Position numbers and translations under genes: made by a program. The notes beneath the pieces were generated by a model. The model worked only from the letters and a program-made list of their open reading frames with translations, did not search any database and was not told the DNA's origin. From an uncultured archaeon (GTDB lineage Archaea > Iainarchaeota > Iainarchaeia > Iainarchaeales > JAGVWC01): a stretch of 12,930 nucleotides of DNA. Shown piece after piece: positions 1 to 6,741 of this stretch (position 1 is the stretch's first letter; the number at the start of each line of letters is the position of its first letter). Location of the stretch: NCBI GenBank assembly GCA_964402015.1, contig CAYOAS010000022.1:1-12930 (forward strand), read 5' to 3'.

Positions 1-382
1 GCAAAAAACAGGCACTACCAAATGTAGTCAATAAAATTCAGCTAAAAATCAGGTATCTAGATTGAAAAAAATAAGCCTAATAAAAAAGCGAGCCGGCTAA
101 TGACTTGGAAAAAAAGTAGCGATGGCAAAATATAAGTGTCAATCAAAACTTTCCCTTCCGCTACGCAACAGACAAAAAAGAACGGATGAAAACAGTAATA
201 GAAAGAGCGCTTGAATACAAGAAAGAAAAACAGCGCAGCTAACTTTTTGGATTTTGTTGTTTGTCTTTTGCTTGTGCCCAGAGAAATTCAAAAAAACCAA
301 ATTGTGGTGTTAGAATAAAATACAAACGTGTTTCATTTCCAGTTTGAAATGAATATTTCCTGCCAAAATTCTTCTTGTCACA

Positions 383-568
383 ATGGATTTTCTTTTGCCT
401 TCGCATATCGTTAACTATTTTAACGTTTCCAAGCACACTAGAACTATGCAAGAGTATAATGTAAAGCATGTTTCCCCTGTTGTTTCGCGGAAAAAATTCC
501 AGGGGCACGTTTATAATGTTACTACCGAAACAGGCAACTTGTTTGTAGAAGACATTTTGGTTCACAAT
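383..568 (+). mobile_element. Orphan intein C-terminal half (IntC-a) fused in frame to the Lon extein. There is an alternative internal start at ATG 446, which would give a 41-aa IntC.
   Basis: [26 protein letters not shown] followed by S at +1 is a canonical block F/G. It resembles the pattern of known short IntC halves such as Neq Pol IntC (...VILYDLSTESGKFYVNGLVLHN). No intein block A or B, and no Lon N-terminus, is present in the 382 nt upstream. That region is A-tract-rich and has stops in all frames. Confidence 0.6.
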
Positions 569-2305
569 TCAGGCGGCCTTGGAACTCCGGCGCACTTGAG
601 GATTGAAGCCGGCTTGATTCACAAAAGTTCCGGTGGCGTGCTATTTTTGGATGAAATTGCTACTCTTTCCCAGAAGGGGCAGCAGGAATTGTTGACAGCA
701 ATGCAGGAAAAAAAATATTCAATTACCGGCCAAAGCGAAATGTCTTCTGGAGCCATGACTAGAACAGAGCTGATTCCTTGTTTTCCGGCTGGAACAATAA
801 TTGCAACTGAAAAAGGCTTTGTTGAAATTGATAAATTTGTGAACGGGCTGTTTGAAAGTCAAGCATGGCAAGTTGGCAAAGAAAATAGTGTGGATTTTTT
901 GGATTTACTGGATTCTATTAAAGTTTGGGTTCCAACAGATAACGGAATTTTTTTAGACAAATTGGAACGAGTTTATAGGAAGCCTTTTTCTGGTAAATTA
1001 ATAAAAATTACTTTTGATGATGGCAGTGAATTATTGGCGACCAAAGAGCATCCAATTAAAACGCCAACGGGTTTTATCCAAGCAAAAGACCTTAAAATCA
1101 GGCAGGCAGTAGAAGCGATTTCACCAATAATTGATGATATGAAAATAATTGAAACATACAATAAAGAAAATCAGCGAGTTGCAAAGGCATATGCTGCTTG
1201 GAAAGCAAACCCATCATTAAAATCCAAAATACTCGGGGTTGATTATAAAACAATCGCTGCTTGGAAAAAAGGAACAGTGCCAAGGACCCTTCGTTGCATT
1301 GATTGGTTGAAAAAAAGAAAATTGCTTCCTTTGCTTTACGAGGATTCTAGATTGGGTCTGATTGCACGAATCAGTGGTGCTTTATTTGGAGACGGGGGTT
1401 TAACAAGAACTGGGTTGTTTTTTGTAACTGATTCAAACAGCAGAATGGACTTGGATGCTTTTAAGTATGATTTGATTAAAACTTTTGGGGACGATTTGGA
1501 ATCAAATTTTGTTTTCAGAAAACACGCTTCAAAAAAAGGGAGCGGTATTGATGTTTCTATGCATAATGCTTTTGTTTCCAGATTTTTTGCTGCGCTTCAG
1601 GTTCCTCGCAATGGCAAGGTAGCACAGCAGTTTGAAGTTCCTGCTTGGGTAAATTCTTCAAATGAAACAAAAAGAGAGTTTTTTTCTGCATTGTTATCCT
1701 GTGAAATGTGCGGCAAAATAAAAAATGCTGGCGGTAAAATATCATTTGTAATGGCAAAGGTTAAAAAATTTGAAAAACAACACATTGCTTTTTTAAATGA
1801 AATAAAAAATTTTTTGGCTGAAAACAAAATAGAGACGAGCAAAATTATTGAAAACAGGAGTTATATGAGAAATAAGACTGGCACGCCAGAAACTGCTGCG
1901 CTTTATTCTTTTAATATTCAGAATAACTGTGGGAATATTGCCCGCTTTATGAATCTGGTTCAGATTTGTTATGCAAGTAACAAAGCGGGTTATATGAAAA
2001 GGCGGTTTGAAGCAGCAGCAATTTACTCTGAAAATTTGGGAGTATTAAAAACAAATAAAGTTAATGCTCTGAAATTGCGGGCAAAGGGTTTAACTATAAA
2101 AGAAATAGGCAATTGCATTAAGCTTTCAAAAAACACTATCCTGAAGACAATTGAGCCGACTTACAATCAGTATTCTTCCATGCACAAAAAAATAGCAGCA
2201 GACCTAATGAAAACCGGCTTGACTGCCAAAAAAGCTGCGCTAAAATTAAAGATGCCATACACTACTTTACTTTATTGGAAAAATAATGGTGAAATGAATG
2301 TTTAA
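383..2305 (+). CDS. lon: Lon (LonB-type) protease fragment 1. It is a fusion of an intein C-terminal half (aa 1-62), the Lon AAA+ Walker-B/sensor-1 segment (aa 63-132), and the N-terminal splicing region plus LAGLIDADG endonuclease of a second intein (aa 133-640).
   Basis: The translation contains SGGLGTPAH...[13 protein letters not shown]...[33 protein letters not shown], which matches the archaeal LonB Walker-B region. The preceding ...[21 protein letters not shown]|S is an intein block F/G ending in His-Asn with Ser at +1. After ...TELIP the sequence [10 protein letters not shown] (intein block A) and ...ATKEHPI (block B, TxxH) follow. The ORF begins after an in-frame TGA at 350-352. The ORF track confirms the frame. 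Confidence 0.75.
569..778 (+). other. lon: Lon extein segment of 70 aa, covering Walker B (VLFLDEI) through the PCDF junction, and bounded by inteins on both sides.
   Basis: This is the aligned LonB motif run. It is interrupted exactly between the P and C of the conserved P-C-D-F(V/I)LVAAGN motif. Confidence 0.7.
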
Positions 2306-2417
2306 CACGACAACAAAAAAGATTGTTTCAATTGAAGAAACAGATTATTCCGGAATGGTTTATAATCTAAAAACAGTTTCTGGCACTTATTTGGCTAATG
2401 GTATTGCTGTTCATAAT
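779..2417 (+). mobile_element. Large intein (intein-b) inserted at the Lon PCDF site. Block A is at 779, block B at about 1040, the LAGLIDADG homing-endonuclease domain at about 1340-1800, HTH-like DNA-binding segments at about 2060-2280, and block F/G at 2350-2417.
   Basis: The intein starts at Cys ([14 protein letters not shown]) and ends [25 protein letters not shown] with Cys at +1 ([10 protein letters not shown]). Its length is 1639 nt, which is not a multiple of 3. The reading frame breaks at 2298-2305, where the gene 1 stop TAA overlaps the gene 2 ATG in ATGAATGTTTAA. The intein is therefore encoded across two ORFs. Confidence 0.75.
1340..1800 (+). other. LAGLIDADG homing-endonuclease domain inside intein-b.
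   Basis: Two LAGLIDADG-type motifs are present. [17 protein letters not shown] lies at nt 1352-1402. [16 protein letters not shown] lies at about nt 1673-1720. They are spaced about 100 aa apart, as in double-motif LAGLIDADG enzymes. Confidence 0.6.
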
Positions 2418-3506
2418 TGTGATTTTGTTCTGGTTGCAGCTGGAAATTATGAAGATTTGAGAAAGGTTCATCCCGCGCTCCGTTCAAGAATCCGCGGTTA
2501 TGGGTATGAGGTTTACATGAACAGTGACATGCCTGATACCCCGGAAAACAGGTTAAAGATTGTAAAATTTGTTGCGCAGGAAATAAAAAAGGACGGAAAA
2601 ATTCCTGCTTTTTCAAGAGAAGCTGTTGAAGAAATAATTTTTGAAGCAAGAAGGCGTGCGGGAAGCAAGAACAAGCTGACTTTGAAATTGCGCGATTTGG
2701 GCGGTCTTGTCCGCGCTGCCGGAGACCTTGCAAAAGAAAAGGGAAAAATTCTTGTAGAGCGCCAGGATGTTTTTGAGGCAAAAATGAGCGCAAGGACATT
2801 GGAGCAGCAGATGGTTGGAAAAATTTTGGAGCACAGGAGAGAATACAATGTTTATTTGACTGAAGGCAGTGCTGTCGGCAGAGTAAATGGCCTGGCTGTT
2901 TCTGGCGACGGGGATGCCGGCCTGGTTTTGCCAATCGAAGCAGAGATTGCACCGGCACAATCGAGCGCAGAGGGAAAAATAATTGCCACTGGAAAGCTTG
3001 GAGAAATTGCAAAAGAGGCAGTGCAAAATGTTTCGGCTCTTGTAAAAAAACTCAGTGGAAAAGACATAAGCAAATTCGATTTGCACATTCAGTTCTTGCA
3101 ATCTTATGAGGGCGTTGAAGGCGATTCTGCAAGCGTTTCTGTTGCAACAGCTGTCATCAGCGCGCTTGAGGGAATTCCGGTAAAGCAATCGCTTGCAATG
3201 ACTGGCTCTTTGAGCGTGCGCGGAGAAGTATTGCCAGTCGGCGGCATTAGTGCAAAAGTCCAGGCTGCAATAAAAGCTGGCTTTAAAGAAGTCATTGTTC
3301 CAAAATCAAATATTGAGGATATTGTTTTGCCGGAAAGCGAATTGAAAAAAATCCGTGTTGTTTCAGTTTCCAACATTTCCGATGTTTTGGATTGCGCATT
3401 TGAAAAATCAAGCCAAAAAATAAAGCTGTTGAAAGACCTGGACAAGCTAGTGAAAATCAATTTGTCAAGAGTAATAGAAAAAACAATAGAAAAAATTTCA
3501 GCCTAA
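2298..3506 (+). CDS. lon: Lon (LonB-type) protease fragment 2. It consists of an intein C-terminal half (aa 1-40, IntC-b) followed by the Lon AAA+ C-terminal subdomain and the Ser-Lys protease domain (aa 41-402).
   Basis: The product starts [40 protein letters not shown]|[10 protein letters not shown]. Downstream are the sensor-2 motif ALRSRI and the protease domain, with catalytic Ser in GDSASVS and Lys in [10 protein letters not shown]. The start overlaps the gene 1 stop by 8 nt. Confidence 0.8.
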
Positions 3507-5375: not shown

Positions 5376-5422
5376 TGAATTGGTAATCCGTGTTTTTATT
5401 CTTTTCTGTTCTAATTTGTTCT

Positions 5423-5560
5423 ATGGAGAAAACGAGCATTTCTATTTGGAAAGACACAGTAGAAAAAGTTGCTGTTTTGGCTAAAAAAGAAAATCGTAGC
5501 ATATCGGCTCAGATAGATTACATTATACAAAAATATTTTGAAGGACAGGGAAAAAAATGA
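5423..5560 (+). CDS. Ribbon-helix-helix (CopG/Arc/MetJ-type) DNA-binding protein of 45 aa.
   Basis: Translated by hand as MEKTSISIWKDTVEKVAVLAKKENRSISAQIDYIIQKYFEGQGKK. It shows a beta-strand (SISIW), helix 1, an N-R-S turn, then helix 2, which is the classic RHH layout. Its stop TGA overlaps the tnpB start in ATGATGG. It is absent from the ORF track only because it is shorter than 60 aa. Confidence 0.55.
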   Translation: MEKTSISIWKDTVEKVAVLAKKENRSISAQIDYIIQKYFEGQGKK

Positions 5561-6741
5561 TGGCATACAAGTTTCGGCTTTATCCTTCAAAACAACAAGC
5601 ACAGGCATTGTTCAAGACATTCAATTTGTGCAGATTCATATACAACAATCTATTGGAAAAACTGAACAATAGCAAAAAGATTAATAGAAAAGCAATCCAA
5701 CATTTAATTGTTGAATTGAAAAAAGAATATCCTGAACTAAAAACGGTTTATTCAAAAACATTGCAGTATGAATGTTATCGGTTGTTTAGCAATTTGTGTT
5801 CATTATCCCGATTGAAAAAGAAAGGGCAAAAGGTGGGAAAATTGCGTTTCAAGGGAAGAGATTGGTTCAAGACAATCAATTACAATCAAAGCGGTTTCAA
5901 GTTGGAGCAAACAGGAAAACGCTTTGGCAAATTATCTCTTTCAAAAATAGGCAATCTAAACATTCGTTGCCACAGAATAACAAGCGGAAAAATCAAGCAA
6001 ATAACAATCAAGAAAAGCGCAAACAAGTGGTATGCTATTCTAATAACTGATGGAACAAACAATCGCCAATGTGGAACTAGAAAGATTGGCTTGGACTTGG
6101 GAATAATCAATTTTGTTGCAGACAGCAATGGCAACAAAACAAAATCACCATTGTTCTTGAAAAAGAACTTGGCAAAAATCAAGTTGGCACATCAAGATTT
6201 ATCAAGAAAAAAAAGGGGAAGCCAAAACAGAAAAAAGTTAAAACAACATTTAAACAAACTTTATGAAAAGGTTGATGACCAACGAAACGATTTTTTGCAA
6301 AAGCTATCAACAAAAATCGTTTCAGAAAACAAACTAATCTGTATAGAAAAGCTCGTCATCAATAAAATGGTTAACAACAAGAAAAACAAACATTGGAACA
6401 AGCGGAATATGCTTGATTGTTCTTGGGCAACATTTACTTCCCTACTAAAACGCAAGGCTGAAAGTGCTGGTGCAAAAGTAATAGAAGTAAATCCAAAGAA
6501 CACAACAAAAACGTGCAGCAATTGTGGAACTATGCAAGATATTCCATTATCACAGAGAACATACTCTTGTGATTGTGGATTGGAATTGGATAGGGATACA
6601 AATGCCGCTAAAAATATATTGGCTCTGGGACAGGGCTTTGTTGAGAAATTTCCTCTACCTTCCGACAATGTTGGAATGCAAGAACATTCAATGAAACAAG
6701 AAGCCATAACCTCAACACTAAAAGCGTTAGGTTATGAATAG
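5557..6741 (+). CDS. tnpB: IS200/IS605-family TnpB (OrfB), an RNA-guided RuvC-like nuclease.
   Basis: The N-terminus AYKFRLYPSKQQAQALFKTFNLCRFIYNN is the typical OrfB_IS605 start. The RuvC-I motif is IGLDLGI. The RuvC-II motif is LICIEKL. The zinc ribbon is CSNCG...SCDCG. The RuvC-III motif is LDRDTNAAKNI. All catalytic residues are present. Confidence 0.85.
   Translation: MMAYKFRLYPSKQQAQALFKTFNLCRFIYNNLLEKLNNSKKINRKAIQHLIVELKKEYPELKTVYSKTLQYECYRLFSNLCSLSRLKKKGQKVGKLRFKGRDWFKTINYNQSGFKLEQTGKRFGKLSLSKIGNLNIRCHRITSGKIKQITIKKSANKWYAILITDGTNNRQCGTRKIGLDLGIINFVADSNGNKTKSPLFLKKNLAKIKLAHQDLSRKKRGSQNRKKLKQHLNKLYEKVDDQRNDFLQKLSTKIVSENKLICIEKLVINKMVNNKKNKHWNKRNMLDCSWATFTSLLKRKAESAGAKVIEVNPKNTTKTCSNCGTMQDIPLSQRTYSCDCGLELDRDTNAAKNILALGQGFVEKFPLPSDNVGMQEHSMKQEAITSTLKALGYE

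Follow-up and report, generated by a model that had tools for sequence, protein, structure and literature searches.

Can a split intein hold on to its homing endonuclease (HEN)? Natural split inteins usually come without one, being described as split mini-inteins (PMC6801210), a background from which the initial annotation of the locus studied here had started. The locus lies on contig CAYOAS010000022.1 of an uncultured archaeon of the Iainarchaeota (assembly GCA_964402015.1; all 12,930 nt were analyzed and are referred to as the window), and the annotation proposed that a LAGLIDADG endonuclease and helix-turn-helix (HTH) modules remain fused to splicing blocks A and B on the N-side fragment of a split intein. 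This proposal held up on five counts: continuity of the host protein (the extein) across the insertion, an allele with an empty insertion site, conservation of the break among relatives, fold and homology evidence, and a Hint domain that closes around the insertion. We are confident, short of certainty, that the window encodes pieces 2 and 3 of a three-piece lonB of an archaeon (DPANN, Iainarchaeum-like), in which the second interruption, site b, is held by a HEN-bearing split intein.

Two reading frames for one LonB

Open reading frame 1 (ORF1; 383..2305, + strand, 640 aa) comprises, in this order, the C-terminal part of an intein at a first site, site a (IntC-a), 70 aa of LonB, the N-terminal portion of the intein at site b (IntN-b, from Cys133), a double-motif LAGLIDADG HEN, two C-terminal HTHs and the stop codon. 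ORF2 (2298..3506, + strand, 402 aa) opens with the 40-aa C-terminal part of the site-b intein (IntC-b; ...GIAVHN/C, the slash marking the splice junction), which is followed by the remaining LonB. The features of both ORFs are:

408..421, + strand: TATA-like element TTAACTATTTTAAC, ~25-35 nt upstream of ATG 446
446..568, + strand: IntC-a, 41 aa, ...EDILVHN/S; LonB site a
569..778, + strand: middle LonB extein, 70 aa, Walker B GGVLFLDEI included; TIGR00764 positions 175-267, E 9.7e-33
779..2417, + strand: whole intein-b element, a contiguous 1639-nt insertion of IntN, HEN, HTHs, internal stop and start, and IntC
779..1129, + strand: IntN-b, Hint N-lobe; block A Cys1 (C133, 'CFPAGT'), block B T-x-x-H ('ATKEHP')
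1130..2023, + strand: HEN domain, double-motif LAGLIDADG with an N-terminal HTH
2024..2302, + strand: two tandem C-terminal HTHs plus a 7-aa tail encoding the ORF2 ribosome-binding site
2288..2305, + strand: coupling signal, with a Shine-Dalgarno (SD)-like GGTGA at 2288-2292, the ORF2 ATG at 2298-2300 and the ORF1 TAA at 2303-2305
2298..2417, + strand: IntC-b, 40 aa, blocks F and G, ending in HN; +1 Cys at 2418
2418..3506, + strand: C-terminal LonB extein, AAA lid and Lon protease; TIGR00764 positions 266-606, E 1.6e-152; Lon_C 1.2e-34

Alignment to the archaeal LonB model TIGR00764 placed aa 43-133 of ORF1 on positions 175-267 and aa 40-381 of ORF2 on positions 266-606. As these two ranges abut, the host LonB is colinear across the interruption, with the insertion point of site b after ...RTExxP. 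In a search of the PDB, the middle extein matched the Lon structures 4zpx and 3k1j.

The true start of ORF1 is probably ATG 446, because the protein of the empty-site allele described below (P0263) begins with MQEY..., as do the homologues, and because the TATA-like element sits upstream of this codon. A similar CTATTT(T)AA element occurs at the same distance upstream of the piece-2 ATG in the related loci L001, L002 and L003 (four loci including the window); judging from its sequence and placement, it likely serves as an archaeal promoter of a piece-2/piece-3 operon.

The break between ORF1 and ORF2

ORF1 and ORF2 share 8 nt, read in different frames (...GAA ATG AAT GTT TAA in the former, ATG TTT AAC... 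in the latter). Could this break be a sequencing or assembly frameshift, or the mark of a dying pseudogene, so that the intein would really be contiguous or the locus non-functional? The window is a metagenome-assembled contig with a decayed HEN remnant just upstream of ORF1, and a one-frame offset over an 8-nt overlap is what a single indel is expected to produce. A search of 5.8 billion proteins, however, retrieved ~22 homologues from independent assemblies (37-72% identity over the whole query, 32-69% over the intein), all of the same layout and each terminating a few residues past the last HTH ('...PYTTxLYWK...'); in three of them, site a is uninterrupted and the C-terminus ends in the same way.

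The geometry of the break was determined from the DNA of ten distinct loci, in each of which the IntC-bearing ORF directly follows. The overlap amounts to 1 nt (TAATG) in L009 and L010, 4 nt (ATGA) in L002 and L012, 8 nt in the window, L001, L007, L008 and L011, and 14 nt in L003, and the offset of the downstream frame is either +1 or -1, depending on the locus. In 11 of 11 loci, the last codons of ORF1 contain an SD-like motif (GGTGA, GAGGT or GGAG), 4-7 nt ahead of the ORF2 ATG, and several loci carry a stop directly before this ATG that closes the ORF2 frame. Splicing residues and exteins are all conserved, and the ratio of nonsynonymous to synonymous substitution rates (dN/dS) is far under 1. 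An artifact or a pseudogene is thus extremely improbable: conservation of the break with varied overlap geometry and an SD-like motif excludes an assembly error, and the same variation in overlap, together with the conserved SD-like motif, indicates two translationally coupled genes.

A contiguous site-b intein was absent from the 120 best hits, and in a HMMER scan of 1.84 billion cluster representatives (150 hits listed) none of the nine strongest hits (E<=1e-30) was one; the query was covered in full by four representatives, each of which ends at the tail. IntN and IntC reside on separate ORFs, each fused to its own extein, and the break is kept across independent genomes.

A contiguous precursor might also arise through programmed ribosomal frameshifting or readthrough and splice in cis, which would make the two ORFs a mere formality. 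Overlapping ORFs and A-rich runs upstream of the junction, such as AAAAATAA, are compatible with this scenario, but the loci differ in the shift needed, +1 or -1, the overlap in L009 and L010 is just 1 nt, and they have no slippery motif in common. As the window ORF2 frame opens only at its ATG, ~5 nt would remain for shifting. We consider frameshifting or readthrough very unlikely and treat ORF1 and ORF2 as separate, coupled genes.

A LAGLIDADG endonuclease on the N-terminal half

Both LAGLIDADG-type motifs and both HTH-like segments reported in the initial annotation were located on ORF1, downstream of blocks A and B and before the stop. Motif 1 spans nt 1352-1402 (Asp337 at nt 1391-1393), motif 2 nt 1661-1714 (Glu441 at nt 1703-1705), and the C-terminal HTHs lie at about nt 2048-2122 and 2198-2284. 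The inserted module proved larger than first delimited: rather than at 1340, it begins at ~1130 and includes a third HTH at about nt 1205-1282, upstream of motif 1, which is shared with the site-a Lon inteins ('...STLRWW..G.KP').

Assignment to the LAGLIDADG family follows from profile-profile and fold evidence, not from the window's own Pfam scan. Using hhalign, the HEN region aligned with contiguous Lon inteins over 281 columns (probability 100%, E 1.8e-47), and members of this comparison set pass Pfam LAGLIDADG_3 (PF14528) in their motif-2 half (P0030, 1.1e-14; P0027, 8.1e-10). An AlphaFold2 (AF2) model gave the HEN core a predicted local distance difference test (pLDDT) score above 90 and the order alpha-beta-beta-alpha-beta-beta-alpha twice; in Foldseek searches with this first model, the best matches were TliVMA (1.9e-10), PI-PkoII (2.5e-8) and I-DmoI, the last at a target-normalized template modeling (TM) score of 0.63-0.70 over ~216 columns. 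Pfam and NCBIfam scans of the window proteins hint at the HEN only through intein-containing RtcB and RFC models, LAGLIDADG is absent from the 25 families matched by most of the 22 family members, and a sequence-profile search of the PDB found the Hint N-lobe and Lon, not the HEN.

The acidic residues had been thought partly degenerate, a view that did not survive comparison: Asp337 and Glu441 (also numbered D205 and E309) are invariant in the 22 family sequences, down to 32% identity. Aligned by eye, the Asp in 'ISGALFGDG' and the Glu in 'FFSALLSCE' occupy the canonical last-but-one LAGLIDADG position and would be the catalytic residues. Motif 2 deviates in having Met or Leu where the consensus puts Gly after the acidic residue (E-M/L, not D/E-G). 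K280 and K402 are lysines shared without exception by the site-a and site-b families; they may correspond to the active-site lysines of PI-SceI.

Mean pairwise identity reaches 0.52 and 0.46 in the HEN core compared to 0.38 in the Hint N-lobe, and this core is almost free of indels. In the comparison with L001 (69% identical), the HEN has a dN/dS of 0.19, and the C-terminal HTHs and the Hint lobe both come to 0.22; these values are approximate, as dS is ~1. By these measures, HEN and HTHs are under purifying selection and the endonuclease is conserved rather than degenerate.

As to the C-terminal HTHs, Pfam HTH_23 was matched in 22 of 22 members (best 6.9e-12), and several other HTH families matched too; in the window alone, HTH_23 stays below threshold (0.003-0.006, 17-18 bits vs. 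a cut-off of 24.6). The AF2 model shows helix pairs at residues 440-502 with pLDDT ~80. Between the two HTHs lies a conserved 'PTYNxYS' motif (window ~2150-2175, ORF1 'EPTYNQYSS') that resembles the start of block F in the site-a IntC, 'TYNVTTE', by coincidence or as a relic of an older IntC. The likeness is strong enough to mislead MAFFT, and one alignment, in which proteins lacking an IntC were mixed in, was discarded after the site-a IntC had been pulled onto this internal motif.

A predicted complete Hint domain

All residues expected for splicing are present, namely Cys1, T-x-x-H, the terminal HN and Cys+1. The TIGR01445 model (intein_Nterm) matched at 6.5e-12, starting at Cys133, and C1, T88 and H91 of the splicing blocks are invariant in the 22 sequences. 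Matches to Intein_splicing and intein_Cterm within the first 40 aa of ORF2 are weak; the HN end of the ORF2 IntC and the following +1 Cys (/CDFVLV) are conserved in 10 loci.

In the AF2 model, the IntN lobe superposes on the Npu DnaE IntN (4lx3) with a TM score of 0.69, and mini-inteins were matched too. The modeled input was IntN-HEN-HTH fused to IntC, as a single chain, not as two chains. With an alignment of trimmed contiguous site-a inteins (model 2), IntC residues 513-548 formed strands at pLDDT 73-91, the N-lobe scoring 78-93. Mini-inteins superpose on model 2 at a root-mean-square deviation of ~2 A over ~120 columns, and Foldseek hits of the whole chain to HEN-containing inteins improved: TliVMA (7.5e-16), PI-PkoII (5e-15), PI-PfuI (9e-13) and PI-SceI (1e-6). 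These results speak for a Hint domain that is complete and carries the HEN in the canonical insertion loop. The structure predictions that the initial annotation had asked for gave an endonuclease fold and, in model 2, a Hint fold closed around it.

Empty sites, endonuclease loss and possible mobility

Presence of intein b varies among close relatives. The L015 locus (Logan SRR22387781; L015 2234-3655, protein P0263) has a clean empty site b, and its LonB piece clusters with ORF2 at an identity of at least 90%. L015 2146-2558 aligns with window 358-770 and L015 2566-3653 with window 2417-3504, both at ~84% nucleotide identity, with window 779..2417 absent. At the empty site, the protein reads ...RTEPVP/CDFVLV and the DNA ...acagagccagtgcct/tgcgatttcgtt..., also given as ...acgcgcacagagccagtgcct/tgcgatttcgttttggttggt... 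(the slash here marking the insertion point). The intein-free L015 is closer to the window in its exteins (nonsynonymous divergence pN 0.044, synonymous divergence pS 0.56) than the intein-bearing L001 (pN 0.152, pS 0.69), so the presence of intein b varies inside the clade. The element is also lower in GC content, with a GC content at third codon positions (GC3) of 0.29 compared to 0.40 in the exteins; this composition and the empty-site polymorphism fit a mobile element. For a test of horizontal transfer, the identity of the 70-aa middle extein is too uniform.

A different relative documents loss of the endonuclease. In an Iainarchaeum metagenome-assembled genome (L014/P0023, about 3150-3300), a ~1.1-kb deletion relative to L007 covers exactly HEN and HTHs, after which IntN (133 aa, ending in a short out-of-frame tail) and the SD motif remain and the IntC ORF is intact; by its sequence, this is an ordinary mini split intein derived from a HEN-bearing one. 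As L014 lost only HEN and HTHs, the split came first and HEN loss later. The HEN-bearing form had been suggested to be an intermediate in the birth of a split intein, and this comparison upholds it as a genuine precursor; it is not a fleeting stage, the family having diverged to 32% identity. From these sequences, intein b is a stable split intein that bears a HEN and is probably still mobile.

Homologues of the module also occur outside intein b. Many free-standing proteins of 300-410 aa begin exactly at the HEN boundary, 'IIxTY', some with a C-terminal HTH (P0123, P0124, P0129, P0134, P0143 and P0152 belong to this family), and P0148, a topoisomerase I-like protein (TopA) of 1199 aa, contains a contiguous intein of the same HintN-HTH-LAGLIDADG-HTH-HintC order. 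The HEN/HTH cassette hence occurs in other host genes, as P0148 carries the same intein order.

Points against, and the alternative of a module that no longer cuts

Several observations weigh against a three-piece lonB with a mobile, HEN-bearing split intein. LonB piece 1, with IntN-a, lies off the contig, where no LonB N-terminus or IntN coding was found upstream of ORF1, and the three-piece state is deduced from relatives. The window protein has no match to Pfam LAGLIDADG (LAGLIDADG_1/2/3) at E<=1; in the comparison with family profiles that the initial annotation had suggested, its link to them is indirect, through the Lon inteins of the profile-profile alignment that pass PF14528. Without its usual Gly, motif 2 could confer reduced endonuclease activity. 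In the first AF2 model, IntC was undocked with pLDDT <30, disordered because full-length site-a proteins were misaligned there and left no usable alignment rows, and the docking in model 2 is partly homology-driven, since its alignment consisted of contiguous site-a inteins. Pairwise identities of intein and extein are correlated (Spearman 0.73), and vertical descent with occasional loss, rather than active homing, could explain much of the distribution; synonymous divergence is 0.58 in the intein and 0.69 in the extein, a comparison confounded by composition.

Some of these points bear on a further alternative, namely that split and trans-splicing are real while the LAGLIDADG/HTH module is no longer a nuclease and is kept for DNA binding, for regulation or as a maturase-like scaffold. 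The off-consensus motif 2 (E-M/L-x-G), the missing direct Pfam match and the correlated divergences, compatible with long vertical residence, speak for this alternative; three HTHs are unusually many for such a module, and mutual dependence of Hint and HEN has been reported for some inteins (bioRxiv 10.1101/546465). Loss of nuclease function does not readily account for an Asp and a Glu that are invariant in 22 sequences down to 32% identity, nor for two lysines, K280 and K402, that are invariant in both intein families. Likewise, close relatives differ in presence or absence of the element, whose empty site is precise and whose composition is distinct, and L014 deleted the module with both intein halves and the splicing blocks intact; as it retains intact halves, the module does not appear to be indispensable for assembly. 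All in all, a module without nuclease activity seems unlikely, if well conceivable, and we retain an endonuclease-bearing split intein as the preferred interpretation.

Site a and the missing first piece

IntC-a, reading ...VHN/SGGLGTP, is one half of another split intein. The 120 best hits included 46 LonB C-pieces of ~470 aa that start with the same IntC-a and have no site-b N-half, which makes the site-a split widespread in DPANN. In Thermococcales, Archaeoglobus and some DPANN, a contiguous LAGLIDADG intein resides at exactly site a.

In L001, one of the closest relatives, the order is LonB-N with IntN-a, a free-standing 324-aa ORF, piece 2 and piece 3 (L001 3756-5866), the 324-aa ORF matching HEN profiles at 1.7e-40 and 3.7e-70. 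In L015, piece 2 is preceded by a free-standing LAGLIDADG gene (L015 1-846) that is cut off by the start of the contig. A trace of such a gene is left in the window:

132..240, + strand: decayed HEN-tail remnant, similar to the C-terminal end of the free-standing LAGLIDADG HEN of site a; frameshifted or stopped

In a tblastn search, the last 26 aa of the L001 324-aa HEN matched window 132-209 (62% identity, E 6e-7), and L015 1289-1495 aligns with window 54-258 at 88% nucleotide identity, L015 having an intact 47-aa ORF at 1335-1478. The contig seems to begin just downstream of where relatives carry the free-standing HEN gene. L002 and L003 have other ORFs intervening at site a, a PLC-like protein in L002 and one of 161 aa in L003; neither is a relative of the HEN.

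L002 differs further in its first piece (L002 2669-5077, 802 aa), where a third, contiguous intein with a LAGLIDADG_3 domain sits in Walker A (GLPGTGK/C...SHN/S). With this intein added to those at sites a and b, the L002 lonB locus holds three.

Comparison with known split inteins and fractured genes

Class-1 split inteins broken at the canonical endonuclease-insertion loop, as here, are known from cyanobacterial DnaE (Ssp, Npu) and Nanoarchaeum equitans PolB. Like these, intein b pairs an IntN of ~100-130 aa (blocks A and B) with an IntC of ~35-40 aa (blocks F and G), and the host protein, in our case by prediction, is restored by trans-splicing. DnaE-type and N. equitans PolB inteins are mini-inteins that lack an endonuclease, and with their halves encoded at separate loci they cannot home. 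In lonB, by contrast, HEN and HTHs add ~390 aa to IntN, and the two halves lie next to each other and are coupled in translation.

In fractured genes (gp41-1, NrdJ-1, IMPDH-1; PMC2677866), both halves share one locus with the HEN between them, as here, and the 3' end of the HEN overlaps the start of the IntC gene (by 6-69 bp there, by 1-14 nt in lonB loci). Fractured-gene endonucleases are free-standing GIY-YIG or Vsr-like enzymes in phage-like loci (PMC2677866), as the initial annotation had it for the free-standing ORF; the site-b HEN instead is of the LAGLIDADG type, in frame with IntN and without a separate start, in a cellular archaeal housekeeping gene. LAGLIDADG and HNH enzymes were suggested to be able to fracture genes, with none reported (PMC2677866), and site a of L001 presents this very arrangement with a LAGLIDADG enzyme in a cellular archaeon.

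The contiguous LonB inteins (P0030 of Pyrococcus kukulkanii, P0027 and P0025) share with intein b the LonB host, a homologous HTH-LAGLIDADG module and the domain order, but are single-chain, reside at site a (DPxQ/.../SGGLGTP) and have one C-terminal HTH-like segment where intein b has two. TliVMA (7qss), PI-PkoII (2cw7), PI-PfuI (1dq3) and PI-SceI (1lws) are the best fold matches for Hint plus LAGLIDADG, and I-DmoI for the monomeric double-LAGLIDADG core; these five are 11-16% identical in sequence, contiguous and without a tandem C-terminal HTH pair.

In the full-text literature, we found no LonB or DPANN split intein and no natural split intein keeping its HEN, although an earlier description may exist. 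What appears new from the sequences is a family-wide HEN-bearing split intein beside a second split intein in a three-piece housekeeping gene.

Proposed mechanism and origin

How might such a locus work? Pieces 2 and 3 would be co-transcribed from the TATA-like promoter upstream of ATG 446, and ribosomes would end ORF1 and start ORF2 at the overlapping SD motif and ATG, so that both halves are made together. IntN-b and IntC-b may then come together as a Hint fold and join the LonB pieces by trans-splicing, while IntC-a would pair with the IntN-a that piece 1, located upstream of the contig, encodes. Once excised, the IntN-HEN-HTH/IntC complex could act as a site-specific endonuclease that cuts intein-free lonB alleles. 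Gene conversion would copy the whole split intein, and homing as a unit could still be possible, unlike in DnaE-type inteins, because both halves, stop, SD motif and start share one contiguous 1639-nt segment. Splicing, cleavage and homing of intein b are thus predicted from sequence. We tentatively propose a homing-competent split intein, in which the break follows an active LAGLIDADG/HTH endonuclease and comes with its own internal stop, ribosome-binding site and start; it would invade intact lonB and convert it in one step into two coupled genes, a prospect that we regard as possible rather than probable.

The break probably arose once, before the family diversified. Splitting of inteins has been ascribed to HEN invasion or to a stop in a decaying HEN (PMC11766414; bioRxiv 10.1101/2025.01.02.630785). 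Two routes could lead to the present layout: the frame of a contiguous intein may have broken where the HEN borders on IntC, or a free-standing HEN, having fractured a mini-intein, may have become fused in frame by its 5' end. Following the second route, a free-standing LAGLIDADG gene would have joined IntN in frame through its 5' end alone and would have retained its stop codon as well as the downstream start embedded in it. This amounts to half of step IIIa in the Dassa 2009 model, and the signature reported in 15 fractured loci is a HEN whose 3' end runs into the IntC gene that follows (PMC2677866). The many free-standing 300-410-aa homologues that start exactly at 'IIxTY', the free-standing site-a HEN in the same gene in L001 and L015, and the failure to find a contiguous site-b intein among the 120 best hits and the strongest cluster-representative hits speak in favor of this origin as well. 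The same HintN-HTH-LAGLIDADG-HTH-HintC order is, however, also found in contiguous inteins (site-a Lon inteins, TopA P0148), which makes a simple frame break equally parsimonious, and we see fusion of a free-standing HEN as a serious candidate that we stop short of calling probable.

Other features of the contig

Outside the lonB region, the contig consists of ordinary archaeal chromosome, with DUF373, a TnpB insertion, Band 7, SpoIIM, Csl4, RpoL, Endo_dU and PCNA, and is syntenic with relatives assigned to Candidatus Iainarchaeum or Diapherotrites; a signal-peptidase-like ORF was picked out by eye. The TnpB/IS605 OrfB gene (5390-6741; OrfB_IS605 and a Cas12f1-like TNB domain) is directly preceded by an ORF of 56 aa and separates DUF373 from Band 7, two genes that neighbor each other in L001 and L002. 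Scans of the window for Rfam families and tRNAs gave no matches, including no Rfam RNA at the TnpB gene, and an exact-sequence look-up of ORF1 found no further contig. Public annotation lists the site-b proteins as 'sigma 54-interacting transcriptional regulator', a label that conceals intein biology.

Implications

Split inteins are central tools of protein engineering, and the intermediate stages of models for their origin have rarely been seen. A split intein with its HEN on the front half is one such predicted stage, and lonB and its relatives display nearly every stage of the pathway: a contiguous HEN-bearing intein, a free-standing LAGLIDADG enzyme between the halves, a HEN on IntN only, a HEN-less split and an empty site. 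The family suggests that the split can come before loss of the endonuclease and last long, and that a split intein may stay mobile where both halves are adjacent on the DNA. Gene fracturing would involve LAGLIDADG enzymes too, not only GIY-YIG or Vsr-like ones, and would take place in cellular archaea rather than phages. For engineering, the locus offers two natural, presumably orthogonal split-intein pairs on one protein, as well as a natural test of how ~390 aa of IntN cargo affect fragment association. If the reading is true, intein b would be a mobile element that spreads gene fission, and the LonB of these archaea would be a natural three-polypeptide protein stitched together by two orthogonal split inteins.

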